DNA from: Bacillota bacterium
Lineage (GTDB): Bacteria > Bacillota > DTU025
Direction of reading: 5' to 3'
DNA: 64,000 nucleotides
Assembly (NCBI GenBank): GCA_050951805.1
Contig: JBMNJT010000002.1
Span: forward strand, 64,001 to 128,000
Each line of letters opens with the position of its first letter. Within the stretch, counting starts at the first letter, position 1. The position numbers were made by a program, and so were the translations under genes. The notes under the pieces were generated by a model, which worked only from the letters and a program-made list of their open reading frames with translations, did not search any database and was not told the DNA's origin. Shown one piece after another: positions 32,040 through 46,290 of the stretch.

Positions 32040-33491
32040 ATGACTTCGCATCTGTTCAAATCCGCGTGGATCAATATGAGTCGACGCCCAATGCAGTCTA
32101 TTCTGACGATCATTCAAGTGGCTCTTGCAGTAGCCTGCATGGTTTCGGTGGCAAGCTACAGGATGAATGTGTCGACAGCGGTCGACCGTTTCAAGTCTTG
32201 TACTGATGACATAGTGATTGCCATGGGCGGGATGGAAAAGCGCACTGAGGGCGGGTATATGAGAAACATGTACAATATTTTCGATGACGACGACATTGCC
32301 CAACTCAATGCTGAAGTTTCCCTCGTGGAGTCTGTAACTGTTTACGAGGATATGTGGGACATTGAGGCTGATGTGGATGGAACGTTGTATCGAATTGGCT
32401 TAGGTGCGTTAGTCGGGCCTGGCTATCAAGACGTGGTCGGCTTCGACATGATCGAAGGCAACTTCATAACCGATGTGGATATGAAGGCGCAGTCCCGCGT
32501 GGTCGTTATCTCGGAAGCCCTCGCGAAGATTCTGTTTGGGGAGGGCCCCTACGTAGGCAGAACGCTTGGCATTATGCCAGTCTGGGCGCGACGGAATTTT
32601 GCTAATGAAGACGGGGCCATGCCCGTGGCACCCACTGAATACCATGTTATAGGCGTATACAGCAATTCTAAGACGTCTACGTCAGCGATGTCGAGCTATA
32701 GTGGCATGCATCCAGCCATCCTCTGTCCGCTCACGTCCGATCCCAATCAGATTTACAGTTCAGGCCAGGGCTGGTTATGCATGGACGAAGAGTATTATCC
32801 ATACGGCACATTGATGATCAAGGCCGCCCCCGGCAAAGCTGCAGCAGTTCGTGACCGTATCGTTGCCATGGTGTCAGGCCGTCCGAGTCCCGATTCATTG
32901 AGCGGAAGTAGTGGGAGTATGGTGGTCATGGGAGGCGGAAGCGCTGAATTTGACGGGCCAGGGTCAGATGGCGAAGGCTCCGATTGGTATTCGCCCCCTG
33001 ATGAAGAGAGCGGCGCGTCGGTGATATTCGAGAGAACTGATGACTTGGAGCAGATGATAGGCTCATCTATGACTAGGATGACGTTGTTGCTCGGCGGCGC
33101 TACGCTTATTGCGATAATCGTGAGCGCTCTGGGCATTCAGAGTGCTATGATGGTAAATGTGACTGAACGCACCCGCGAGATCGGCTTAAGGCGCGTTCTT
33201 GGCGCCTCCCGCCGCGTTGTGGTGGTCCAGTTCACCGTTGACGCCATGATACTCGCGGCAGTAGGAGGCGGATTCGGAGGGCTTCTGTCATTTGCCCTGT
33301 ATCCATACCTAATGAATTCTGTCTTTTCCAGTATGGGCCCGGGATGGCTTTTGGACGTGAGTGCGAGGCCTGTGGGATGGGCCATATTAGCCGGGATTGT
33401 TCTTTCCGCCGCAGTGGGTGCCCTCTTTGGGGCGATACCTGCGGCACAGGCTGCCCGTGTTCAGCCTGCAGATATAGTGAGAGAGCTTTGA
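32040..33491 (+). CDS. ABC transporter permease, MacB/FtsX family
   Basis: RRPMQSILT; MMVNVTERTREIGLRRVLGA; FGAIPAAQAA. Confidence 0.9.
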   Translation: MTSHLFKSAWINMSRRPMQSILTIIQVALAVACMVSVASYRMNVSTAVDRFKSCTDDIVIAMGGMEKRTEGGYMRNMYNIFDDDDIAQLNAEVSLVESVTVYEDMWDIEADVDGTLYRIGLGALVGPGYQDVVGFDMIEGNFITDVDMKAQSRVVVISEALAKILFGEGPYVGRTLGIMPVWARRNFANEDGAMPVAPTEYHVIGVYSNSKTSTSAMSSYSGMHPAILCPLTSDPNQIYSSGQGWLCMDEEYYPYGTLMIKAAPGKAAAVRDRIVAMVSGRPSPDSLSGSSGSMVVMGGGSAEFDGPGSDGEGSDWYSPPDEESGASVIFERTDDLEQMIGSSMTRMTLLLGGATLIAIIVSALGIQSAMMVNVTERTREIGLRRVLGASRRVVVVQFTVDAMILAAVGGGFGGLLSFALYPYLMNSVFSSMGPGWLLDVSARPVGWAILAGIVLSAAVGALFGAIPAAQAARVQPADIVREL

Positions 33492-33508
33492 TTCGGGGAG
33501 GTATTCTT

Positions 33509-34834
33509 ATGGCTGCAGGTACGCCGGAAACCGAAAGAGAGTATGAGCCCATAGTCACCAGTCCGGCGCGGACTTCATCGAGCAAGACCCGCCGCGACAT
33601 GGGCATGCTCATATTCATCATAGCCGTGTTGGTTGGCGCGGTTGCCCTGGCTGCACGGTTTCTCATACCCAAAGAAAAACCCTACCTCCTCTCGAACTAC
33701 ACATTTGCCCATGTCAGCACGGCTGATTTCACTGACTCTGTGAGCGCCCCCGGAACCGTAGCGCCGGCTACCACAGTGGACGTGCGTGCTGACGTTTCTG
33801 GGGTGGTTGCCAAGCTCAGCGCCGCTTTAGGTGATGAGGTGAATGTGGGCGACCCCATATGCGTTCTTCAGTCGCCAGAGCTTGTTACAAGACGTGACGA
33901 GGCAGTGCGCCAGGTGGTTGCTGCTGAGGATGCACTCGCCAAGGCAAAGCTCGATGCTGCTCAATCGGAGGAACGGGTGAGGAGAGAGATCGTCGTAGCC
34001 GAGCAGGCGGTTTCAGATGCACTTAATCGACGTGAAGATATGGAGAAGCTGTTCGAGGCGGGCGCTGTGTCCCGAGTCCAGGTGGACGAGGCGCGGGCCG
34101 CGGAAAGCAAAGCGCGTATGGCGCTGGATAACGCGCGGTTGGATCACGATGCCACTATTAGGTCGAACGCCCTCTCGATCGACACGGCCACAAGGCAGGT
34201 TGGCGTGGCACGGAATGCTTTGCGCGCTGCCGAGGATTGTATTTCACAGCTCACAGTCTGCTCGCCTATTAAAGGCAAGGTGTTGGAACTGAGTGTCGTT
34301 TTAGGCGCAACAGCGAGCCAAGGGGGAGTGGTCGCCCAGGTGGCGGATATGGAGAGCATAGTGGTAAAGGCCAAAGTTGCCTCCACAGATGTCCGCCGGG
34401 TGACGGTAGGGCAGCCTGCTTCGATAAACCTGGGAGGCAGAAAGGTGGCTGGAGTAGTTCGCCATGTGGCGCCCAAGGCCGAAGCGAGCGGACAGGGAGC
34501 GACTGTTGAAGTGACAATCGATTTTGATGAACGGCCGGGCGACGTGCCCCCAAACAGTGCTGCATTCGTCGATATAGAGGTGCAGAGACGTACAGATGTG
34601 CCGTCCTTGCCCCGCGGCGCTTACCTGGCCAGCAGCAGAGAACTGTTCGTATACGTAATCGAAGGTTCCAAAGCGGTCCAACGGGACGTGAGATTCGGTT
34701 CAATCTTCGGCAACCGAATCGAAGTAGTAGACGGGCTGTCGGTGGGCGAGAGCGTGATCACCTCATCCTATGAGGAGTTCAAGGATAGGCGGGAGATAAA
34801 AGTTGCGCCTGAGGGAGGACGGGAAAGCCAATGA
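33509..34834 (+). CDS. efflux periplasmic adaptor subunit (MacA/HlyD-like)
   Basis: N-terminal TM; lipoyl-like VRADVSGVV..GDEV; long coiled coil; SPIKGKV; GLSVGESV. Confidence 0.9.
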   Translation: MAAGTPETEREYEPIVTSPARTSSSKTRRDMGMLIFIIAVLVGAVALAARFLIPKEKPYLLSNYTFAHVSTADFTDSVSAPGTVAPATTVDVRADVSGVVAKLSAALGDEVNVGDPICVLQSPELVTRRDEAVRQVVAAEDALAKAKLDAAQSEERVRREIVVAEQAVSDALNRREDMEKLFEAGAVSRVQVDEARAAESKARMALDNARLDHDATIRSNALSIDTATRQVGVARNALRAAEDCISQLTVCSPIKGKVLELSVVLGATASQGGVVAQVADMESIVVKAKVASTDVRRVTVGQPASINLGGRKVAGVVRHVAPKAEASGQGATVEVTIDFDERPGDVPPNSAAFVDIEVQRRTDVPSLPRGAYLASSRELFVYVIEGSKAVQRDVRFGSIFGNRIEVVDGLSVGESVITSSYEEFKDRREIKVAPEGGRESQ

Positions 34835-35541
34835 ACGAGGATAGACAGGCTCAGGCTTTCATACAGCTTGAGGACGTGTGCAAAGTATACGCGATGGGGG
34901 ATGTCAGCGTTGCGGCGCTGGGAGGAATTTCACTCGAAATCCCCCGTGGGGAGTATGTAGCGATAATGGGACCGTCCGGTTCGGGGAAGTCCACTCTGCT
35001 CAACATCATGGGCGGTTTGGACGTGGCAACATCAGGCAAATACCTGCTAGAGGGCGTCGAGGTAACGCGTCTGCCCGATGCTGAGCTTGCCAGGATCAGG
35101 TGCCGTCACTTCGGATTCATCTTTCAAAGTTACAACCTCTTTCCCGAACTCACAGCAATCGAAAATGTGATAGTCCCCATGATGTACGCAGGCGTTGCGC
35201 CGGCTAATCGGACGCAACGGGCTGCAGAGCTCCTTGATTCGCTGGGGATGGGCCACCGGCTTCGCCATCTCCCAAGTCAGCTTTCAGGCGGAGAACAGCA
35301 GCGCGTTGCGATTGCAAGGGCGCTTGCCAACGACCCCGACGTGATATTCGCCGACGAGCCTACTGGAAACCTGGCCACAGCGCAGGGCGAGGAGATATTG
35401 GATATTCTTGAAGGGCTCAACAAAAGAGGGGTTACCATAGTGATAGTGACTCACAGCGAGAACGTTGCCGACCGCGCAGAACGACTCATAACCATGCGCG
35501 ATGGGCGAGTATATTCAGACCAGACGGCGGCTCGGGTGTAG
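34831..35541 (+). CDS. ABC transporter ATP-binding protein (MacB/LolD-like)
   Basis: [35 protein letters not shown]. Confidence 0.95.
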
Positions 35542-35918: not shown

Positions 35919-35945
35919 CTAACGTAATATACAAATACACACGTT

Positions 35946-36269
35946 AAAGCGATGATCGGGAAGAGTAGGCGCGGACCTTTCGGGCAGCGAGCCGGGGACG
36001 GTGCGAGCCCGGTCCGAAAGAGCGACTGAACCACACCCGGGAGTGCGGGCTGAACGCGGGCGCGAAAGCGTTCTGCTATTAGGTTCCGACGGAGTCTTTC
36101 ACCGTTACAGGAAAGGGGATATAAGGCAGCACTGCTTCTGTCGCCTGTTGCGCCGCTGTCCGTATCCTTGATGAGTGGGTTCGAGGCGCCAGCTTCGGGC
36201 TAATTAGGGTGGGACCACGGGAAGATCATGCTTCTCGTCCCTTTGCGGGACGGGGAGCATTTTTTCTTT
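35946..36269 (+). ncRNA. T-box riboswitch, histidine-specific
   Basis: AGTA and AGCGAG/GGTGCGA stem I motifs; specifier CAC (36032-36034); T-box AATTAGGGTGGGACCACG with UGGG matching the tRNA-His C73 discriminator; terminator at about 36228-36269. Confidence 0.93.
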
Positions 36270-36350: not shown

Positions 36351-37430
36351 GTGGACAGCTTTCCGACTTGGGGAAGATACTATCTCCCCGCTGATGCCCT
36401 CATCAGACGACATATTGAGAGCAGTCTGGCGTGGACGTTCGAAGCCCGGGGCTACGAAGAGATAGTCCCGCCGCTGCTGGTGGGGTTGGATATGGCTGTA
36501 CTCGACTCGAGTGGTTCGACCTTTACCAATGGCCTGGCTGGGGCAGAGAAGCCATACGCAGTCCTTGCAAGGGATGGCAGCTTCTTTGCCCTGCGGTCTG
36601 ACATGACTGTCCCTGTTGCAGCTCTGGCAGTGCGCCACCTCTTGCCATCGGAAAGTCCTGTCCGCCTCTATTACTCAGGCAGCGTCTTTCGCCCCCAGAA
36701 GGCGGGAAATGGAAAACCGGAGGAGCGGCGCCAGTTTGGCGCTGAGCTGATCGGGACAGACGCTGCAGACAGCGTCAAAGCCGATTGTGAGATTCTTGCC
36801 ATGGCTGCCGAAGGGCTAATCAACACAGGAGTGCGGGACTTTTGCATCGGCCTGAGCGACGCTAAGCTCTTCTTGGCCATGCTCGATGCAGCACGGGTCG
36901 AGGATGATGCGAAAGATGCCATCTGGTCAGCGCTGGCATCACGAGACTATGTCCGCTATGGCGAGCTCGTATCGTCCCTCGATGACGGCGGCGATCCTCA
37001 GAAAGCCCTCGGAATCGATCTTCTCAAGCGCTTGCTTGCCCTAGAGTCAACAGAGGAGTCGCTCGATGCGCTCAGGAGGGCAGGGGTCTGCGATGCAGCT
37101 TCCGAGCTTATCAGGATACTTGATGTCTTGGAAGAGAGGGGTTTGGGCAAGTGCTTTCGTCTCGACCTGTCCATAGTCCGGGAATTTCGGTACTACACCG
37201 GAGTCGTGTTCGAGGGATATGCCGTTGGGTGCGCAAATGCCGTGATCGGCGGTGGACGGTACGACAAACTGCTGGCGCGATTTGGGTCGTCTGCGCCCGC
37301 AGCGGGTTTGGCTGTGGATGTGGACGCCGTGGTGTCGGCTTTGCAAGCAGTAGAAGGAGGTGAGCGTCGATGGAACAGGTATCTGTGGCCCAACGCACGC
37401 CCGTGCGCGAAAGTGAGGTCGCGTCACTAA
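36351..37430 (+). CDS. hisZ: ATP phosphoribosyltransferase regulatory subunit
   Basis: ALRSDMTVPVA, RLYYSGSVFR, QFGAELIG, YYTGVVFEGY, GGGRYDKL. Confidence 0.92.
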   Translation: MDSFPTWGRYYLPADALIRRHIESSLAWTFEARGYEEIVPPLLVGLDMAVLDSSGSTFTNGLAGAEKPYAVLARDGSFFALRSDMTVPVAALAVRHLLPSESPVRLYYSGSVFRPQKAGNGKPEERRQFGAELIGTDAADSVKADCEILAMAAEGLINTGVRDFCIGLSDAKLFLAMLDAARVEDDAKDAIWSALASRDYVRYGELVSSLDDGGDPQKALGIDLLKRLLALESTEESLDALRRAGVCDAASELIRILDVLEERGLGKCFRLDLSIVREFRYYTGVVFEGYAVGCANAVIGGGRYDKLLARFGSSAPAAGLAVDVDAVVSALQAVEGGERRWNRYLWPNARPCAKVRSRH

Positions 37431-38119
37431 ATCTAGGGAACTGTCTCAGCATCGCGCTTCCCAAAGGTCGATTGCTCCAGCCATCGCTGGATGCCCTGGC
37501 GGAAGCGGGACTTCAAGTTCCAAGCATGGATGAGATAGACAGAAGACTCATCTACACGACGGGTGACGGCAGTATGCGGTTCATTCTTGCCCGCCCTGCG
37601 GATGTGCCAGCATATGTCGAACATGGCGCTGCCGACCTAGGGATAACCGGAAAGGATGCGTTGCTCGAAGGCGATTGGGGCGTTTGCGAACTCGTCGACT
37701 TAGGTTTTGGGAGATGCCGCTTGGTTGTTGCAGCGCTTCAGGGGGCGATTGCCCCAGATGGCTGCGGCTCTGAGGGGGCCGTCTGCAAGCTGCCTTTGCC
37801 GCGTAGTGGCCACACTCTACGGGTAGCCACCAAGTTTCCGGCCATTGCCAGACGCCACTTTGCGCTGAAACGGGATCTATGCGTCGAGATCATCAAGCTC
37901 AATGGGGCTGTGGAGATTGCTCCTATTGCGGGGCTTTCCGACGTAATCGTGGACATAGTGGACACCGGCCGTACATTGGCCGACAACGGGCTTGTGCCAA
38001 TAGAGGAGGTAGCGCAGTTATCAGCGAGGCTCATTGCGAATCGCGCGAGCCTCAAGCTGAAATCTACAGTCATCCATCAGATTGCGTCGGCGCTTTGTGA
38101 TCGAAGCCGCAGCATCTGA
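37370..38119 (+). CDS. hisG: ATP phosphoribosyltransferase, short form
   Basis: IALPKGRL, DVPAYVEHGAADLGITGKD, RVATKFP, GAVEIAP, DIVDTGRTL. Confidence 0.95.
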   Translation: MEQVSVAQRTPVRESEVASLNLGNCLSIALPKGRLLQPSLDALAEAGLQVPSMDEIDRRLIYTTGDGSMRFILARPADVPAYVEHGAADLGITGKDALLEGDWGVCELVDLGFGRCRLVVAALQGAIAPDGCGSEGAVCKLPLPRSGHTLRVATKFPAIARRHFALKRDLCVEIIKLNGAVEIAPIAGLSDVIVDIVDTGRTLADNGLVPIEEVAQLSARLIANRASLKLKSTVIHQIASALCDRSRSI

Positions 38120-38217
38120 CGGACTTAGGCATCGAGCAGACAGATGGATTGCTGTAAAGCTGAGGCGAGGTTTATGGCCATTAAAACATGCCAATGCCAG
38201 GAGGTGTTGAGGCGAAG

Positions 38218-39516
38218 ATGAATACGCCAATCGGGATAAAGACTATTGCAGCTTGCGACTACTTGCAGCAACGAATCCGTCGAGGGCCTGAGGACTTCGA
38301 AGAGGTTGAGCAGAAGGTTCGCCCCATCATTGAAGACGTCCGAAGACGCGGTGACCAGGCTGTGCTCGACTACACCGCGCAGTTCGACGGTGCAGATTTT
38401 GTGCCAGAAAGCATTGAGACCACGAGCGCCGACATTGATCACGCCTACTCTGTGGTGGATCAGGGCGTTGTAGAGGCTCTCCGGAAGGCGGCCGACAATA
38501 TTCGGTGCTTCCACGAGCGGCAGGTACAGCAGACTTGGGCGTGCATTCTGGATGATGGAGCCATCATGGGGCAGGCAATCCGACCAATAGAACGGGTTGG
38601 CATCTACGCGCCTGGCGGCGCCGCGGCCTACCCGTCCTCTGTGCTCATGTGCGCGGTACCTGCCCGGATAGCCGGGGTGCAGAGCGTGATTGTCTGCACT
38701 CCACCTGGTCCCGGTGGCGTTGCCAACCCCTATGTGCTCGTGGCGGCCGACATCGTTGGCGTCGACAAGGTGTTCAAGGTTGGGGGATGTCAGGCCATCG
38801 CGGCGATGGCTTTTGGCACCGAGTCCGTCTGTGCAGTAGACAAAATCGTGGGACCGGGCAATGCTTATGTGACTGCAGCCAAAAGGTTGGTCTTTGGCTA
38901 TGTGGACATCGATATGCTCGCCGGACCGAGCGAACTTGTCGTGCTAGCAGACATGTCCGCCGACCCGCGCTTCGTGGCGGCGGACATGCTTTCTCAGGCT
39001 GAGCACGGTCCTGACTCGGAAGCCATATTGGTGACAACCAGATGCGAGGTTGCCGCGAGTGTTGTCCGCGAAATAGCCGTTCAGGTTGAGTCCCTGTCTC
39101 GTCGCGATACGATTATACGTTCTTTAAGCGAACACGGCCTTATCATAATCGCCGACGATCTCGACCAGGCTGTAGACGTGGTAAACCGCTATGCCCCTGA
39201 ACACCTTGAAGTGATGGTGGACGATCCCCATGCCCTTCTCAGTCGGCTGCGCAACGCCGGCAGCATACTGCTAGGTCCGCTCACGCCGGTGGCGGCCACC
39301 GACTACGCCGCCGGACCGAACCATGTATTGCCCACAGGTGGCACAGCTCGCAGTGGATCGCCTCTTTCAGTTCGGGATTTTGTGAAGATACAGAACATCA
39401 CATCGCTTACGCGGGTTGCACTAGACGATATGATGGATGCCGCCGAGACCATCGCAGCAGTCGAAGGGCTGGATGCTCACGCAGCTGCCCTTGGGGCAAG
39501 GAGGGTAGGATTATGA
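38218..39516 (+). CDS. hisD: histidinol dehydrogenase
   Basis: GIYAPGG, DKIVGPGNAYV, DMLAGPSE, SQAEH, APEHLE, GPNHVLPT. Confidence 0.96.
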   Translation: MNTPIGIKTIAACDYLQQRIRRGPEDFEEVEQKVRPIIEDVRRRGDQAVLDYTAQFDGADFVPESIETTSADIDHAYSVVDQGVVEALRKAADNIRCFHERQVQQTWACILDDGAIMGQAIRPIERVGIYAPGGAAAYPSSVLMCAVPARIAGVQSVIVCTPPGPGGVANPYVLVAADIVGVDKVFKVGGCQAIAAMAFGTESVCAVDKIVGPGNAYVTAAKRLVFGYVDIDMLAGPSELVVLADMSADPRFVAADMLSQAEHGPDSEAILVTTRCEVAASVVREIAVQVESLSRRDTIIRSLSEHGLIIIADDLDQAVDVVNRYAPEHLEVMVDDPHALLSRLRNAGSILLGPLTPVAATDYAAGPNHVLPTGGTARSGSPLSVRDFVKIQNITSLTRVALDDMMDAAETIAAVEGLDAHAAALGARRVGL

Positions 39517-40691
39517 TAGCCTCAGTTGCCGGGAGAGGAGGCGCCAATGAACGGGATATGGGTTCGGTGGCCGAGTTCGCCAGGCCTGAACTTCAAGGGC
39601 TTCGAGCTTGCGTGCCTGATTGGCATGGCGTCAGAGTCAAACTTGACAGCAACGAAAGCCCCTTCGATCTCCCTGCATGCATAAAGGAAAATGCCCTGAG
39701 GAAGTTGCGGGAGATCCCGTTCAATAGGTACCCTCAAGGGCTGGCGGCGAAGCTCAGGGAGACGATTGCATTCCGCGACGGGGTCAGCGAGACACAGGTG
39801 ACCCTCGGCAACGGGCTGGACGAGGTAATCTACATTATCCTGCAGGCTTTTGGACCAGGCAGGAAAGTAATAATCCAGAAGCCCTCTTTTACTACGTATA
39901 CCTATGCGGCTCTTTCCGCTAGCGCTGATATCCGGGCAGTTCCCCTCGACGAGGGACTGCGCTTGAGCACAGCGGGGCTTATCGAAGAGGCGAATGCTGC
40001 CGAGTCGCCTTGTATCTTGATCATATGCAACCCTCACAACCCTACCGGAGGGCGGTTTATGGAGGAAGACATCGTGGATGTGCTCGAAGCTACGAATTCC
40101 ATGGTCATAGTCGACGAGGCATACGTGGAGTTTTCGGGCGGAAGCGTTCTCCCGTTGGTTGCTGAGTATGATCGACTGATCGTGCTGCGGACGTTGTCAA
40201 AGGCTTTCGGGTTGGCCGGGGTGCGTGTCGGGTACTCCGTGTCGAGCTCTGAGATCGCTGCCGAGTTGGACCGGATCAGGCAGCCGTTCAACCTCGACTC
40301 GCTTGCCTTGGTTGTTGCTCAGACCGCTCTGGAAAACGACAACTATTGCCGGGAAGCGGTCGTCCGCATTGTCGAAGAGCGCGAGCGGCTTTTGGGCCGC
40401 CTTGGAGAAATTCACGGAGTGACCTGTTTCCCGTCTTGTACGAATTTCATTCTGTTTAGGACAACGATGCCAGATGCAACGATGGTCAGAGATGCTCTTC
40501 GTCGGTATGGCGTATCTGTTCGCGTGTTTCCCGATGAGCCCATGCTTCGCGGGTGCCTGAGGGTGAGCTGTGGGACAAAGGAAGAGGACGACGCATTCCT
40601 GGAGGCTTTGGAGAAGGTGTTGGCAGAAGCAAACCAAACGTCCGCCGGTCTTCGTGACGACGACGGAAAAAGGATTGAGGGTGGTGAGTAG
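39513..40691 (+). CDS. hisC: histidinol-phosphate aminotransferase
   Basis: KLDSNESP, NRYP, CNPHNPTG, VDEAYVEF, RTLSKAFGLAGVRVG. Confidence 0.95.
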   Translation: MIASVAGRGGANERDMGSVAEFARPELQGLRACVPDWHGVRVKLDSNESPFDLPACIKENALRKLREIPFNRYPQGLAAKLRETIAFRDGVSETQVTLGNGLDEVIYIILQAFGPGRKVIIQKPSFTTYTYAALSASADIRAVPLDEGLRLSTAGLIEEANAAESPCILIICNPHNPTGGRFMEEDIVDVLEATNSMVIVDEAYVEFSGGSVLPLVAEYDRLIVLRTLSKAFGLAGVRVGYSVSSSEIAAELDRIRQPFNLDSLALVVAQTALENDNYCREAVVRIVEERERLLGRLGEIHGVTCFPSCTNFILFRTTMPDATMVRDALRRYGVSVRVFPDEPMLRGCLRVSCGTKEEDDAFLEALEKVLAEANQTSAGLRDDDGKRIEGGE

Positions 40692-40692
40692 G

Positions 40693-41307
40693 ATGCCCAA
40701 ACCGAGACTGGCCGAAGTGCACCGCAAGACATCGGAGACATCAGTCGAGCTGAGGTTGATCCTCGACGCTGCCAGAGACCATGGCTGCTCTGGCAGTCAT
40801 CAGGCGAACATCTCAACTTGCTGCGGATTCTTTGATCACATGCTCAGGCTGCTGGCATTTCATGCCCAGTTTAGCTTGGATCTTCATGCCACGGGAGACA
40901 TCGAAGTCGACTATCACCATCTTGTGGAAGATGTGGGCATCTGTATCGGCGAGGCATTCTGCGAAGCGCTAGGCGACAAGCAAGGCATTGCGCGCTTTGG
41001 CAGCGCCCTTGTGCCAATGGATGACGCTTTGAGCATGGCCGTCGTGGATCTGTCGGGGCGTCCATTCCTTCATTTCAATGTGTCCATGCCATGCGCGAAG
41101 GTTGGCGATTTCGATACAGAGCTGGTGGAAGAGTTCATGCGGGCTTTGGCAAGTAACGGGAAGTTCACATTGCATGTAGACCTGCTCCACGGGTGGAACA
41201 CGCACCATATCATAGAATCTGTCTTCAAGGCGGTGGCTCTTGCATTGAGGCAGGCCGCGGCAGCAGGAGACACGTCTTCGATTCCGTCCACGAAAGGGGT
41301 GTTGTAG
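40693..41307 (+). CDS. hisB: imidazoleglycerol-phosphate dehydratase
   Basis: RKTSET, FFDHML, DYHHLVED, PMDDAL, NTHHIIESVFKA, PSTKGVL. Confidence 0.95.
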   Translation: MPKPRLAEVHRKTSETSVELRLILDAARDHGCSGSHQANISTCCGFFDHMLRLLAFHAQFSLDLHATGDIEVDYHHLVEDVGICIGEAFCEALGDKQGIARFGSALVPMDDALSMAVVDLSGRPFLHFNVSMPCAKVGDFDTELVEEFMRALASNGKFTLHVDLLHGWNTHHIIESVFKAVALALRQAAAAGDTSSIPSTKGVL

Positions 41308-41308
41308 G

Positions 41309-42880
41309 ATGCTAGTGCTTCCGGCTATAGATATCCACAACGGAAAGTGTGTTCGCCTGTTTCAGGGAGACTTTGCGAAAGTCACCGAGTATTCCGATGA
41401 CCCGTGCCAAACTGCCCGGCGATGGGCGAACATGGGCGCTCAGATGCTGCACGTGGTCGATTTAGACGGAGCCCGGCAAGGTATGCCGGTAAACTTGGAG
41501 GTTGTGCGCGGCATCATAGCCCACACTGGTCTTCCTGTACAAGTGGGCGGAGGTTTCAGAACTCCGAAGGACGTCGAATCGGCCCTTGAGGCTAAAGCGG
41601 CGCGAGTCATCCTAGGGACTGCGGCCTGTAGCGACCCGGCAATGCTCCGCGACCTTGTTAGGAGATTTGGCGAGGATAGGATCGTGGTGAGTATAGATTC
41701 CAACTGCGGTGCAGTTATGACAGATGGATGGGTGCGAGCCTCCGGCATCGCTCCTTCAGAACTTGTCGAGCGCGCCCTGGACTCTGGGATCCAGACAGTC
41801 ATTTGTACTGATGTGTCTCGAGACGGCACTTTGGCCGGGGTTAATGTTGATTCCATCGCTCAGCTGTTGTCGGCAGGCGCAAACGTTATAGTTGCAGGCG
41901 GAGTCAGTTCGATCCAGGATCTTCGTCAGCTGAAAGGCCTGGAAAGCCAGGGAGTGAGCGGAGTCATCATCGGCCGCGCTCTGTACACTGGCGCGATCAG
42001 ATTCCGAGATGCGTTGAGAGCGGCAGGAAGCAGGAGAATCATTCCTTGCCTTGACACGAAGGACGGCCGCGTGGTGAAGGGGGTTAACTTCGAGAATCTG
42101 AGGGATGCAGGCGACCCCGTTGGATTGGCTGAGATCTATGAGAGCCAGGGAGCTGACGAGCTGATGTTGCTCGATCTGTCTGCTACTGCTGAGGGACGCA
42201 GGACTGCCCTGGATCTTGTGGGCCGGGTCGCGTCTGCCGTCTCGATTCCCCTTTCAGCGGGCGGGGGCATCACAAGCCTCGATGATGTCGGGCGAGTTCT
42301 CGATGCCGGCGCGTCAAAGGTGTGCATCAACTCTGCAGCGGTGCGAAACCCTCAGTTGCTCCAGCATGCGGCGAAGGCTTTCGGGGTTGACCGGATCGTC
42401 TCCGCCATAGATGCATCCGCCATTGCGGAGCCATTTTTGGATGCAGGCAACAGACATGGCGATCGTGATGTCAACGACATCGTAAGCATCGAGGTTGACA
42501 GCAAGAACGATGGTAATGGTGACGGCTGTGGCAGGTGGGTTGTGTGCACATTCGGGGGCAAGCAACGCACGGATCTCGATTTGATTGAATGGGCTCGCAC
42601 CGTTGAGCGGCTGGGGGCAGGCGAAATCCTCCTCACGTCTGTGGATAGAGACGGGTCGACGGACGGCTACGACTTGCGGCAGCTGCGGGCCGTGACCCAA
42701 GCGGTGGGCATTCCTGTGATCGCGTCGGGCGGTGCAGGAACACCTGAGCATTTCCGCGATGCGTTCGTGGAAGGCGGAGCTGATGCTGCCCTTGCAGCCT
42801 CGGTCTTCCACTTCGGAACGCTGAGCGTGGGAGATGTAAAAAGACACCTCAAGCGGGAAGGAGTTGACGTCAGGTTATGA
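41309..42880 (+). CDS. hisA/hisF: HisA-HisF fusion (ProFAR isomerase plus ImGP synthase cyclase)
   Basis: Residues ~1-240 HisA (LPAIDIHNGKCVRLFQG, HVVDLDGA, QVGGGFR, GVIIGRALY); then HisF (RRIIPCLD, DAGDP, ADELMLLD, GEILLTSVDRDG, AALAASVFHF); no stop between them. Confidence 0.92.
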   Translation: MLVLPAIDIHNGKCVRLFQGDFAKVTEYSDDPCQTARRWANMGAQMLHVVDLDGARQGMPVNLEVVRGIIAHTGLPVQVGGGFRTPKDVESALEAKAARVILGTAACSDPAMLRDLVRRFGEDRIVVSIDSNCGAVMTDGWVRASGIAPSELVERALDSGIQTVICTDVSRDGTLAGVNVDSIAQLLSAGANVIVAGGVSSIQDLRQLKGLESQGVSGVIIGRALYTGAIRFRDALRAAGSRRIIPCLDTKDGRVVKGVNFENLRDAGDPVGLAEIYESQGADELMLLDLSATAEGRRTALDLVGRVASAVSIPLSAGGGITSLDDVGRVLDAGASKVCINSAAVRNPQLLQHAAKAFGVDRIVSAIDASAIAEPFLDAGNRHGDRDVNDIVSIEVDSKNDGNGDGCGRWVVCTFGGKQRTDLDLIEWARTVERLGAGEILLTSVDRDGSTDGYDLRQLRAVTQAVGIPVIASGGAGTPEHFRDAFVEGGADAALAASVFHFGTLSVGDVKRHLKREGVDVRL

Positions 42881-43590
42881 TTGAACGATTGGAATCGGAT
42901 GATGGCGAAAGCCTGGAAGGATGGATAGACACGCTCAAATTCGGTGCAGATGGACTGATTCCCGCTGTCATTCAGGAGAGTGTGACTGGCCAGGTGCTGA
43001 TGGTCGGATACATGAATCGCCAGTCCATCGAAATGACGCTCCGTGAAGGCCGGACATGTTTTTGGAGCAGGAGCCGCCAGAGGCTGTGGACCAAGGGAGA
43101 GACTTCCGGACATTTCCAGAAAGTGCGGGCGGTCTTCTGCGACTGCGACCGCGACTGCTTGCTCATAGAGGTTGACCAGACGGGCGAGGCTTGTCACTTG
43201 GGCCGAAAGTCCTGTTTCTTTACGCAGTTATGGGGCAGTGCAGATGCTGCTGGGACCGGGTTCAGTCTGGATAAGCTCTACGAAACAGTGGAGGATAGAA
43301 AGGCAAGCCAACCGGAAGGTTCGTACACGGCCAAGTTGATCCGATCCGGGCAAGACCGAGTGCTGAAAAAAGTGGCTGAGGAGGCCGGCGAAGTGATGCT
43401 GGCTTCCAAGAACGACGACAGAGAGGAGATCATCAGGGAGATGGCGGACTTGTGGTTCCATTCCATCGTCGTTTTGGCATACCACGATATTCCTCCGCAG
43501 GCGATCCTGGACGAGTTGGCCGATCGTCACAGTAATGCGCGGAAAGCGGAAAGCTTGTGCACAGAAAGAAAAGAGGGCCCTGGATACTGA
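42877..43590 (+). CDS. hisIE: bifunctional PR-AMP cyclohydrolase / PR-ATP pyrophosphatase
   Basis: WSRSRQRLWTKGETSGH, DCDRD, ACHLGRKSCF; GSYT, KKVAEEAGE, EMADLWFH. Confidence 0.95.
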   Translation: MIERLESDDGESLEGWIDTLKFGADGLIPAVIQESVTGQVLMVGYMNRQSIEMTLREGRTCFWSRSRQRLWTKGETSGHFQKVRAVFCDCDRDCLLIEVDQTGEACHLGRKSCFFTQLWGSADAAGTGFSLDKLYETVEDRKASQPEGSYTAKLIRSGQDRVLKKVAEEAGEVMLASKNDDREEIIREMADLWFHSIVVLAYHDIPPQAILDELADRHSNARKAESLCTERKEGPGY

Positions 43591-43630: not shown

Positions 43631-45145
43631 TTAGATGTTGTCGGAGCCTACGGACTGCAATAGCCTGGACTTTGCCATGAAGCATGCAGCCAGTTGATAG
43701 GCGAGATCGGACTCGGCTTTGCGCACTGCGTCTATAGCTTCTGAGACTTCTGCATACGCGACTGCGCCAATACGGCATTGCTCCTCTCTTATGTCCAATG
43801 TTGCCGTGGCGATGGCGACAGCCAAACGCGCCAGCTCGACCGATGACTCTGCTTCGCGAAGATTGTAGAATGCTTCAACTACTTCAAGGAGTATGGAATC
43901 CCTTGTTTCGACGGCATTTGCTTTAGCCTGTTCCACTCGGCCTTTTGCGGACTCGATGGCGATCTCTGCAGCGTAATCCCTAGTAAGCAGTGCGGAGACC
44001 TCTAGGCCCACGCGCCAGTGTCCCCCGGATGACGCTTGCCCTTGGAAAAAGACATCCGGGCGTTTGGCCGCAATCGCTTGAGCGAGGGCAGCCTCGGCAT
44101 CTGCGACATCTTGCTCTGCCATGGGAATTTCGGGCCTCGTTTCGAGCGCCGCCCGCGTACAGGTGTCGAGATCCAGGTCTTCAGGCCATCTCACATACTC
44201 TCCGGCCGGCGCGAGGTGCACTAAAGTTTCCAGGTCTCTGCCTATAGCACGGTTAAAGCTGATGGAAGCAATAGCCAGATTGTGCCGGGCAGATTGAGCT
44301 GCCGCTTCGGCTCTGTCGGCGCCGGCCTTTGCTTCTAGTGCATCAAGTTCGCTTGCGTTCCCCGCAGAACATCGCCCCTCCACGAAAGCCGCATGAGTGC
44401 GGGCACGCGAGAGACCGCGGTCAGCGGCGGCGACTCGGTCTTCCGCTGCAAGGAGATTGAAGTATGCGGCCTGCGCTGAAGCACGCGCTTGGCGTATCGA
44501 CTGGTCGAGCTGGAACTGAGCACTCCGCAATTGAGACTGGGCAGAGCTTGTTGAGCTTGGGGCCTCGCCCGGGGAGCTAGCGCCGAGTATGGGCAGGGAC
44601 AGGCTTGCACTGCCGTTCCAGGCGCTTTTGCCCGATAAGGCCGGGTCTGAAAATGCAAAGGATGCGGTGGCCGACAATGAAAGGCTCCCGCCACCCAGCG
44701 GAATCCGCACGTCTCCGCCAGCTTGCGAAAGCGCATACATGGACGTCTCGCCTTTTCCCATCGGTTTGCTGTCTTCTTCGACGACACTCTGGACACTTAG
44801 CGGCCCAATCCCTATTTGCAGAGGTGCGGCATGGACCGTTATAGAAGGCCGCTTTTGAGCTTCGGCAGCCTGGAGCTGAAGCATTGCGAGCTCCACAGCG
44901 CGCTTGGCCGAAGCGACCGATGGCGAGGAGGATTCGGCCAGGCGCATTACATCTTCCATGGTCAGAGCCAGACTCTCGTCGGCGTGTGATGCGCCTAGAG
45001 AAGAATCCGCAGCAAAGGTGCATGGTGCAAGGGCGAGGAGTAACATCACAACGCAGATACAGATGTCTGCAGCTCTACGGCTGAACGGAACCGTGACAAA
45101 AGCCGTCTGCCGCTGCTGGCTTTTGTGTTGAGCAGTCTGGCTCAT
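43631..45145 (-). CDS. TolC family outer-membrane efflux protein
   Basis: Signal peptide; LTMEDVMRLA, AYFNLLAA, ALETRPEI, AFYNL repeats typical of OEP domains. Confidence 0.8.
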   Translation of the reverse strand: MSQTAQHKSQQRQTAFVTVPFSRRAADICICVVMLLLALAPCTFAADSSLGASHADESLALTMEDVMRLAESSSPSVASAKRAVELAMLQLQAAEAQKRPSITVHAAPLQIGIGPLSVQSVVEEDSKPMGKGETSMYALSQAGGDVRIPLGGGSLSLSATASFAFSDPALSGKSAWNGSASLSLPILGASSPGEAPSSTSSAQSQLRSAQFQLDQSIRQARASAQAAYFNLLAAEDRVAAADRGLSRARTHAAFVEGRCSAGNASELDALEAKAGADRAEAAAQSARHNLAIASISFNRAIGRDLETLVHLAPAGEYVRWPEDLDLDTCTRAALETRPEIPMAEQDVADAEAALAQAIAAKRPDVFFQGQASSGGHWRVGLEVSALLTRDYAAEIAIESAKGRVEQAKANAVETRDSILLEVVEAFYNLREAESSVELARLAVAIATATLDIREEQCRIGAVAYAEVSEAIDAVRKAESDLAYQLAACFMAKSRLLQSVGSDNI

Positions 45146-46290
45146 CGGGGATCACCAGGCTCAGCCTCTTCGGCCGGATAGTTTGCCCAGGCATCAAAGT
45201 GCAGTCGGGCGATGTTGTAGCTCATTATCGATTGAAGCTCGGAGAGCCTGGCCTCGGTGAGGCTCAACTGCGCTCCCAAGAGTGAATTGGCGATTTCCAT
45301 GCCGTGCTCGTAACGGAGCTTCATTATTCTGTAGTTTTCCTCTGCCTGTTTGGTCGCGGCTGAGGCGATTGAAATCGCCCTGTGGGATTCCTCAAGCGAC
45401 AGATACATCTGCCGGGCTTCAACTCGCACTCCGCGCTCAGCCTGGCCTGCGGCGAGCCTGGCCTGTGCCAGAGCATTATTGAGCTGCCGCTTGGTCAGTT
45501 CGGGAGTGTATTCGTTATCTGCGAACTTCGCTTCGAGCTCGCAGATCTCCAGGGTTTCTCGGGCCTTGACGATCTCCGGGCGATTCTTCAAAGCAAGGGC
45601 GAGTGCGGCTTCGTAGTCAACATCTCCGGCAATTGGCTGGGCTGAATCGATCGCAATGACAGGTGTGTCAAGGTCCATGCCTAAGGTGCGCTTTAGGGCC
45701 AGTTGTGCCAGTTCAAGATGGTTTTTGGCAGACAACGTCGAGGTTACTGCCTGCTCCAGAGCGATTTCAGCTGACATGACATCCATCTTGCTTGCCAGGC
45801 CGGCTTCGAATCTAAGACGAACGATTCGCAGGCTTTCCCTGGCCTGTTCTTCGGAGGCATGTATTATGTTGGCACGCTCTTGCGCTGTCACAAGATTGTA
45901 GTAGGCCTCGTCTACATCGAGCATGAGGGATTGTTCTTTTGCGACAAGGGCACGTCTAGCGTCCCGTCTGGCGCCGGCTGCGCGTTTGGAGGCGATCACG
46001 GATGGCCTTATGAGGGCATCTGCCTCTGCCATCTGGAACTGGATTTCGGATGCTTCGAACTCGAGCACTGCCATGGCATAATCATAGCTGTGGTCAATCG
46101 CGTAGCTGCGCGCTTCATCCAGGGTCAATTCCAAGGGCTCAGGCTGAGCTACTGCGCATAGCCCGCCGGATCCGGAGAGGGCGAGAAGCGCCAGAATGGC
46201 CATGGTTATGGCTAGAGGTGACTGTCGGAAATGCCGGGCGTGAGCGGGATTTTTCAACCTCAAACTTTTGGAAAGCGGTTTGATTGTCAT
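45142..46290 (-). CDS. TolC family protein (short form)
   Basis: LTLDEARSYA, AYYNLV, RFEAGLASKMDV, ALKNRPEI, AEENYRIMKLRYEHG. Confidence 0.82.
   Translation of the reverse strand: MTIKPLSKSLRLKNPAHARHFRQSPLAITMAILALLALSGSGGLCAVAQPEPLELTLDEARSYAIDHSYDYAMAVLEFEASEIQFQMAEADALIRPSVIASKRAAGARRDARRALVAKEQSLMLDVDEAYYNLVTAQERANIIHASEEQARESLRIVRLRFEAGLASKMDVMSAEIALEQAVTSTLSAKNHLELAQLALKRTLGMDLDTPVIAIDSAQPIAGDVDYEAALALALKNRPEIVKARETLEICELEAKFADNEYTPELTKRQLNNALAQARLAAGQAERGVRVEARQMYLSLEESHRAISIASAATKQAEENYRIMKLRYEHGMEIANSLLGAQLSLTEARLSELQSIMSYNIARLHFDAWANYPAEEAEPGDPR

Follow-up and report, generated by a model that had tools for sequence, protein, structure and literature searches.

A HisA-HisF fusion in a Bacillota genome without detected hisH, a candidate ammonia-dependent imidazole glycerol phosphate synthase

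Imidazole glycerol phosphate (ImGP) synthase, a heterodimer of HisF and HisH in Thermotoga maritima and Escherichia coli (PDB 1GPW, 1KA9), is the textbook model of ammonia tunnelling and inter-subunit allostery, and it is commonly assumed to need HisH in vivo; pathway-reconstruction schemes count HisH as a pathway component (PMC7311316, PMC9026213). Given ammonium salts at basic pH, HisF carries out the reaction by itself, the assays being run with 100 mM ammonium acetate at pH 8.5 (PMC11350729), and the HisF of Corynebacterium glutamicum was proposed to use ammonia in vivo (PMC3896937). C. glutamicum was found to grow without hisH and its hisF to complement an E. coli hisH deletion, both being unpublished observations in that review, which states that no further case of this kind was on record by then. 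In Blochmanniella endosymbionts, hisH pseudogenes were described beside a retained hisF, and the authors suggested synthesis on abundant ammonia (PMC12779916). Here we analysed a 64-kb window of a Bacillota genome (contig JBMNJT010000002.1, positions 64,001 to 128,000; all coordinates without a genome or locus code are window positions), in which a single open reading frame (ORF) of 523 aa on the plus strand (41309..42880, hereafter hisAF) encodes HisA and then HisF in a genome without detected hisH.

Compared with the HisF:HisH heterodimer, the HisF half aligned in full length to the T. maritima and T. thermophilus proteins (E 1e-73 to 1e-77) and kept the catalytic and ammonia-gate residues, but HisH was not detected in the genome, the interface residues were replaced, an insertion of 35 residues was present and HisA was covalently attached. 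C. glutamicum still encodes a functional HisH, whereas here hisH is gone from the whole family, as far as profile searches reach, and the docking face has drifted; Blochmanniella are reduced insect endosymbionts, whereas the present organisms are free-living anaerobic Bacillota in which the loss occurs in many families, alongside loss of glutamine synthetase (GS). The same HisA-then-HisF chain of ~490-530 aa exists in Bacteroidales (e.g. Prevotella sp. AGR2160, locus L077) and in many metagenomic lineages, but the Bacteroidales fusions keep D98 and Q123, have hisH immediately upstream, share 41-43% identity with the window protein and differ in junction sequence. A functional parallel from another amidotransferase family is the single-domain NAD synthetase NadE, a glutaminase-less form that runs on free ammonia in vivo, for which it competes with GS, though its fold and chemistry are unrelated and its ammonia form is thought ancestral (PMC3376133), unlike the secondary loss considered here. 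In the literature searched, most subscription journals being outside its scope, no description was found of a natural HisA-HisF fusion protein or of free-living hisH-less lineages; the 'hisA/hisF fusion' in PMC1963479 denotes an ancient internal gene elongation.

The HisA-HisF fusion

Both halves exceeded the cut-offs of their TIGR models (Table 1), TIGR00007 matching residues 3-234 over profile positions 1-230 of 231 and TIGR00735 matching residues 242-522. On the HisF half the paralogue models were weaker (WbuZ TIGR03572, 331.8 bits; AglZ/HisF2, 283.9 bits, under its cut-off of 310), and Pfam returned two His_biosynth stretches in the 523-aa protein. In the HisA half, D8 was invariant and D130 nearly invariant among 46 fused homologues (alignment A3), and we take these to be the counterparts of the catalytic D8 and D127 of T. 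maritima HisA at the ends of strands β1 and β5. The halves meet near 42029 in the sequence DALRAAG-SRRIIPCLD. Since the first in-frame ATG, GTG or TTG past this junction, the GTG of GRVVKG, lies 3′ of the catalytic Asp of CLD, that position offers no start for a separate functional HisF.

The fusion is real and not an assembly artefact. The source genome, G000, comprises 2.75 Mb in 8 contigs and is 97% complete (other G codes denote comparison genomes); continuous HisA-HisF ORFs of 496-514 aa were found in five other genomes of its family (G001, G003, G007, G009 and G011), and database proteins P0001-P0017 have the fusion too, at 58-99% identity. Metagenome contigs of runs X3, X5 and X6, from three studies, span the junction with zero indels; X3 and X5 hardly differ from each other and may come from the same source as the studied DNA. 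As judged from substitution rates, hisAF is under purifying selection: the ratio of nonsynonymous to synonymous rates (dN/dS) was 0.158 for HisA and 0.166 for HisF against G001, and 0.181 and 0.095, respectively, against G007, values that are rough because dS is near or above 1.

An AlphaFold2 model of the fusion (predicted local distance difference test, pLDDT, 91.2; predicted template modelling score, pTM, 0.77) has HisA as a (β/α)8 barrel with pLDDT >90. In Foldseek, both halves had matches among solved chains of HisF or HisA with a TM-score of ~0.9 normalised to the target, and no solved chain was found to span both halves (TM-score normalised to the query ≤0.46). The HisF half carries a lineage-specific loop insertion (Table 1), of which residues 376-405 were predicted disordered (pLDDT <50). 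This insertion was considered as a functional novelty and rejected, being predicted disordered, its length ranging from 2 to 36 among relatives and hisH-bearing (hisH+) G018 having 35 extra residues at the same place.

As to how the junction arose, the codons AGC AGG AGA in the junction region (42020-42046) contain AGGAG, and in unfused sister genera (L016:2190-2290; L018:1420-1520) the hisF ribosome-binding site and start, GGAAGGAGCAGGAGAA-ATG, lie inside the hisA 3′ end, where the hisA frame reads G-R-S-R-R. A 13-nt deletion removing the hisF start may have given the fused G-S-R-R-I-I-P; this placement was made by eye and is ambiguous, as MAFFT aligns the region without that gap. In several relatives hisA and hisF stand in one frame with a single stop codon between them, so such fusions would arise easily. 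Fusion is also not confined to this pair: the metagenomic protein P0112 (687 aa) is a HisA-HisF-HisIE triple fusion, and HisF-HisIE fusions occur in G013 and G026.

Absence of hisH and the HisF docking face

A genome-wide search for hisH, as recommended in an earlier note made on this DNA from the sequence alone, found none in G000. The TIGR01855 profile reached at best 25 bits against a cut-off of 105, the same search being positive in 14/14 control genomes; a hidden Markov model (HMM) built from 31 HisH proteins of relatives and run with --max over the 37,448 six-frame ORFs that are 40 aa or longer reached at best 34 bits, a match to PurQ, whereas true HisH proteins scored 159-329 bits on it. 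With PF00117, three class-I amidotransferase proteins were identified in G000, i.e. PyrG, PurQ and a 241-aa peptidase-C26-like protein. None of the 12 family genomes reached the hisH cut-off, while hisA and hisF were present in 11 of them and both missing from G002 (72% complete). The usual hisB-hisA slot has no room for hisH, because the hisB stop lies 1 nt 5′ of the hisAF start, and no gene has taken its place between hisB and the abutting hisA or hisAF in the operons without hisH of G000, G001, G004, G011, G013, G023, G026 and G029.

Residue numbering of HisF follows T. maritima and was set by phmmer alignment to its HisF chains. The fusion kept the catalytic D11 and D130, whose role is described in PMC11350729, and the gate residues R5, E46, K99 and E167, and it carries Ser in place of D98 and Asp-Arg at positions 123 and 124 (Table 1). 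Published work places these and further changed positions (see the column scan below) as follows: fD98-hK181 and fE71-hR18 are interface salt bridges with fD74 in the same network (bioRxiv 10.64898/2026.05.29.728626), fQ123 contacts the HisH-bound glutamine and the allosteric path includes fF49 (PMC9052757). Among 61 relatives, Q123 was kept in 35/35 HisFs from hisH+ genomes, position 98 being Asp in 34 and Glu in one, and was replaced in all 18 hisH-less genomes with data, where D98 was replaced in 14. G013 was taken as hisH-less in this count, its sole TIGR01855 match adjoining a WbuZ-like paralogue and its his operon reading hisB-hisA-hisF::hisIE, and three paralogue rows (G013_L063, G038_L061 and G038_L062) were omitted. 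The worry that such replacements might be common in HisH-partnered HisFs, raised in the earlier note, was therefore not borne out. What that note had read directly from the letters, namely the ORF and its junction, the lack of an obvious internal HisF start, the kept catalytic and gate residues and the D98 and Q123 replacements, held throughout.

An unbiased scan for columns at least 90% conserved in hisH+ HisFs and kept in at most 50% of hisH-less HisFs returned, outside the insertion, only T. maritima positions 4, 33, 49, 55, 73, 98, 123, 124, 150 and 186; positions 71, 74 and 77 shifted as well, from E/F/F to S/S/L. In hisH-less lineages the replacing residues were diverse, being S, C, A, R, T, N or H at position 98 and D, E, H, P, A, R, S, G or K at position 123. 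D11, E46 and D130 were retained without exception among the hisH-less HisFs that had data at those positions, and many hisH-less HisFs other than the fusion had lost gate residues (R5 to K/L, K99 to R, E167 to A/I/S/Y). By its residue pattern the docking face looks like the progressive decay of an unused surface. The earlier note had spoken of a remodelled interface, but decay describes it better, since lineages differ in the residues found at the replaced positions.

The survey was extended to an even sample of the phylum, comprising 201 genomes at least 90% complete, in which hisH was matched in 135 (E ≤1e-30) and HisF in 175. Of 41 HisF-bearing genomes without a hisH match, three (G027, G083 and G122) have an insertion-bearing HisH, leaving 38/175 (22%) without intact hisH, and by this count HisF without HisH appears common in the phylum. 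Thirty of the 38 have Q123 replaced, as against none of 37 HisH-partnered HisFs examined in the phylum, and 21 have D98 replaced. Two of the 38, G072 and G175, retain only hisH fragments of 60-75 aa, which look like hisH caught in decay. Beyond the phylum, 51 of 80 loci contain hisH, of which 50 keep Q123, and four genomes picked for a replaced Q123, i.e. an Aerococcus viridans isolate, the complete genome of Amphibacillus sp. Q70, an Alkaliphilus metagenome-assembled genome (MAG) and a Halanaerobiales MAG, were all without hisH genome-wide. On the HisF tree the hisH state needs 4-5 changes, the starred branches being compatible with a single origin.

Some observations stand beside these counts. 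The insertion-bearing HisH, all from one genus (G027:C1:665323-666213, G083:C1:706887-707843 and G122:C1:1934524-1935438), have ORFs of 373-555 aa matched by the profile in three pieces, and strict E-value thresholds miss them. The fragments G175:C228:59704-59865 and G072:C15:16902-17051 match only HisH positions 134-187; that of G175 lies ~0.8 kb from hisF, and the HisF interface of G175 is still canonical. Position 124 was Cys in 34/35 hisH+ HisFs of the phylum and Arg in 12/18 hisH-less relatives, and Arg124 recurs in G069, G139, G155, G103, G101, G121, G159, G161, G192 and Amphibacillus locus L130; its recurrence in several lineages may go beyond drift. G038, with canonical hisH and hisF, has a second, divergent HisF-like gene (L061; G038:C107:50058-50444; K5, N98, D123, V167) that groups near the hisH-less clade on a long branch of the HisF tree. 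True WbuZ-like paralogues (G013, G038) have hisH-like neighbours and split off on long branches. The context expected for WbuZ/HisF2, a WbuY/HisH2 glutaminase and a WbuX-type amidotransferase, was not found at hisAF, which sits between hisB and hisIE.

Fusion and hisH loss could be separated. Three members of the same family (G004, G005 and G006) encode HisA and HisF in separate genes and have no hisH over the cut-off, S98 and D, P or A at position 123; hisH loss thus does not depend on fusion. Of 120 database proteins homologous to the entire fusion, almost all of them as long as a fused chain (~490 aa), 88 keep D/E98 and Q123. All eight Bacteroidales fusions, including that of a cultured Prevotella, have hisH directly upstream with D98 and Q123 kept, and the metagenomic protein P0047 (704 aa) is a HisH-HisA-HisF triple fusion. 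Linker length does not separate fusions with Q123 from those without. As read from this gene distribution, hisH was lost before the fusion arose and independently of it, and the proposal of the earlier note that the HisA-HisF fusion had replaced HisH is not supported.

Ammonia use and its alternatives

In family searches of G000, no match was obtained to GS, glutamate synthase (GOGAT), Amt, CarB or TrpE/PabB, and one glutamate dehydrogenase was found (C2:1094489-1095193), on which nitrogen assimilation seems to rest alone, judging by gene content. The GMP synthase of G000, outside the window (C2:776047-776982; L145:1441-2439), is a 332-aa ATP-pyrophosphatase/GMP_synt_C part without a glutaminase domain, with a phosphoribosyltransferase gene directly upstream. 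The GuaA N-terminal domain (TIGR00888, E ≤1e-25) was present in one of the 12 family genomes, G004, and was missing also in G023, G026, G028, G029, G052 and G055. Across the 175 HisF-bearing sample genomes, 137 had both hisH and GS, none had hisH without GS, 22 had GS without hisH and 16 had neither; the 16 GS-less genomes are spread over ten family codes, and within-family contrasts for GS and hisH occur in f20, f35, f48 and f60. A mechanistic rationale has been published: the level of free ammonia is normally held down by GS, and a weak ammonia-dependent NadE can be rescued by mutation of glnA (PMC3376133). As to habitat, runs holding at least 0.96 of the sampled words of hisAF came from anaerobic digester, bioreactor, landfill and activated-sludge metagenomes (studies P2-P6, beyond the possible source study). 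Digester- and landfill-type habitats are rich in ammonium, which agrees with the ammonium-rich setting proposed in the earlier note.

The fusion is probably an ammonia-dependent, HisH-independent ImGP synthase joined to HisA, with an unused docking face that has decayed. [quoted passage not shown] As the lineage is without HisH, the ammonia would be free cytoplasmic NH3/NH4+ and not tunnelled from glutamine, which should be workable given an ammonium-rich anaerobic waste habitat and no GS/GOGAT drawing ammonia down. After HisH was lost, the docking face (positions 4, 49, 71-77, 98, 123 and 124) would have been unconstrained and drifted; the catalytic Asp residues were retained, as were the four gate residues in the case of this protein. 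The HisA fusion would be a separate, later event inside an already hisH-less family, likely beneficial through fixed 1:1 expression and PRFAR proximity. Neither a genomic HisH nor the D98 and Q123 contacts were found, and the protein belongs to the HisA and HisF families and not to the glutamine-dependent HisF:HisH holoenzyme class. Of the earlier proposal, then, ammonia use without HisH agrees with the comparative evidence, hisH being absent and the substitutions tracking its loss, and the role given to the fusion as HisH's replacement does not.

Several points weigh against this reading. The evidence is all comparative, the genomes are mostly MAGs and the genome searches start from a loose first pass. 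E. coli and Salmonella hisH mutants are auxotrophic in ammonia-containing medium (PMC3896937), so independence from HisH is not automatic and may need kinetic adaptation. Among the 38 hisH-less sample HisFs, eight keep Q123, with a gradient from canonical G175 and G201 (the latter fully so) through G133, G166 and G194, differing only at position 74, to G139, G155, G090 and G103 with one to several changes, and outside the phylum a Nitrospiria MAG has hisH together with S123; because of such cases the substitution signature is strong but not absolute. GS loss is not required for hisH loss, since 22 hisH-less genomes keep GS, and the HisF tree gives one starred pair (four on all branches) separating the hisH states, so that, with relatives not independent and too few independent pairs for a sign test, no valid statistic backs the link between GS and hisH. 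The cell still handles glutamine, as PyrG and PurQ keep their glutaminase parts, and a C26-type class-I amidotransferase-like protein is present in 17/18 hisH-less relatives.

This last protein (G000:C2:768516-769238, PuuD-like) could be a non-orthologous glutaminase in place of HisH. It would dock on HisF, and perhaps also on GuaA with its missing glutaminase domain, and release ammonia from either glutamine or some gamma-glutamyl compound. No other class-I glutamine amidotransferase-like protein of G000 is without an assigned synthase. The triad positions C113, H216 and E218 (Cys-His-Glu) of the C26-like protein are invariant in 21 homologues, and its gene lies ~7 kb from guaA in G000, G004 and G013. 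Homologues were more frequent in the hisH-less relatives with HisF than in the hisH+ ones (18/38), but they coexist with hisH in those 18 genomes, were never inside the his loci examined, and the search of the complete genome of hisH-less Amphibacillus yielded no full-length C26 protein. The best family of the protein is gamma-glutamyl-GABA hydrolase (99.7 bits, under cut-off), and a complex prediction of the HisF domain (A2) with it (A1) scored 0.00 against a mark of 0.32, which speaks neither for nor against binding. A new common partner is further disfavoured because the former HisH face varies between hisH-less lineages, as under relaxed constraint, and we consider such a replacement unlikely. 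That the HisA barrel itself occupies the place of HisH, making HisH dispensable and handing PRFAR directly to HisF, as in the causal form of the earlier note's proposal, is a distinctly improbable alternative. The HisF N-terminus lies on the barrel face that binds HisH, HisA helix α8 (232-239) runs into HisF strand β1 (242-251) with two linker residues only, and the pTM of the two-barrel model predicts a fixed arrangement; against this stand the unfused hisH-less G004-G006 with their substitutions, the Bacteroidales fusions with adjacent hisH and kept D98/Q123, the HisH-HisA-HisF protein P0047, and the Q123-retaining fusions P0025 and P0097 with equal or shorter junctions. Moreover, both chain ends of (β/α)8 barrels are opposite the active site, and with a short linker the two active sites would face away from each other.

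A hisH present but missed, through an assembly gap or divergence beyond the models, gains something from G000 not being closed and from the three HisH that score only in pieces. Those insertion-bearing forms were still detected, however, two independent profiles over six frames gave nothing above 34 bits in G000, no family genome passed the cut-off, the 1-nt hisB-hisAF gap leaves no slot, and closed or near-closed genomes are hisH-less as well (G194, one contig; G133, two contigs; the complete Amphibacillus genome), which makes an overlooked gene extremely improbable. Hardly more credible is a decaying relic pathway in which histidine is imported and the HisF domain is non-functional: the unmatched carB and TrpE/PabB and the decayed hisH of G072 and G175 would fit it, but the seven his genes are without exception intact and closely coupled, dN/dS is 0.095-0.18, the catalytic residues are invariant and the operon follows a T-box whose specifier is His-like. 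Metatranscriptome run X18 also has four small contigs on hisAF, which is weak evidence of expression, given at contig level and with DNA carry-over possible.

The his operon and wider meaning

The gene stands in a his operon that, from family matches and gene order (Table 1), appears complete as hisZ-G-D-C-B-AF-IE and T-box-controlled. The specifier region of the T-box reads GAA-C-CAC-A, the codon CAC being assigned by eye from the alignment, and the element probably senses tRNA-His. On either side of the operon (33344-35538, plus strand; 43631-46290, minus strand) lie two TolC-like outer-membrane efflux genes and a MacA/MacB-like adaptor with an ABC ATPase, and outer-membrane components in a Bacillota genome are consistent with a diderm lineage.

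Table 1. Features of the his operon and of hisAF in the 64-kb window
Feature	Position	Strand	Evidence and remarks
T-box leader	35943..36245	+	Rfam RF00230, 93.8 bits against gathering 93 (marginal pass), full model 1-219
hisZ (ATP phosphoribosyltransferase regulatory subunit)	36351..37430	+	TIGR00443 221.7 bits, under the 271.65 cut-off, still best family
hisG (short form; start codon uncertain)	37370..38119	+	Pfam HisG 168.9 bits
hisD	38188..39516	+	Pfam Histidinol_dh 553.9 bits
hisC	39513..40691	+	Pfam Aminotran_1_2 189 bits, operon position
hisB (imidazole glycerol phosphate dehydratase)	40693..41307	+	Pfam IGPD 210.6 bits; likely ATG 40693, longest ORF from 40570
HisA domain of hisAF	41309..42028	+	Residues 1-240; TIGR00007 368.9 bits (cut-off 228.95)
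HisF (cyclase) domain of hisAF	42029..42877	+	Residues 241-523; TIGR00735 385.7 bits (cut-off 294.55)
Ser codon at D98 position	42314-42316	+	T. maritima HisF alignment
Asp-Arg at Q123 and 124 positions	42389..42394	+	Asp codon 42389-42391, Arg codon 42392-42394
Loop insertion, ~35 residues, after strand β5 (after AIDA)	42425..42529	+	Query 133-167 unaligned against T. maritima HisF
hisIE	42877..43590	+	Pfam PRA-CH 116.8, PRA-PH 80.5 bits; ATG overlaps hisAF stop (ATGA)

As a possible wider picture, held tentatively and at somewhat less than even confidence, the fusion may belong to a recurrent 'glutamine-sparing' economy of anaerobic Bacillota in ammonium-rich habitats. GS and GOGAT would have been lost and glutaminase modules (HisH, the GMP synthase N-terminal domain) then shed, leaving the enzymes on free ammonia with synthase parts adapted as well as decayed (Arg124, the HisA fusion); about one-fifth of the HisF-bearing species of the phylum would make histidine without glutamine, and GS loss would predict this without exception in the sample.

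If ammonia-dependent synthesis by HisH-independent HisF is true, hisH-less genomes should not be scored as histidine auxotrophs, which concerns 38/175 HisF-bearing genomes in the sample. The HisFs released from HisH would form a graded series from intact to fully drifted, a natural experiment separating residues kept for partnership from those kept for catalysis. The cultured hisH-less organisms Aerococcus viridans and Amphibacillus sp. Q70 make the reading directly testable, and GS loss may then serve as an easily read genomic predictor of amidotransferases that run on ammonia in digesters and landfills.

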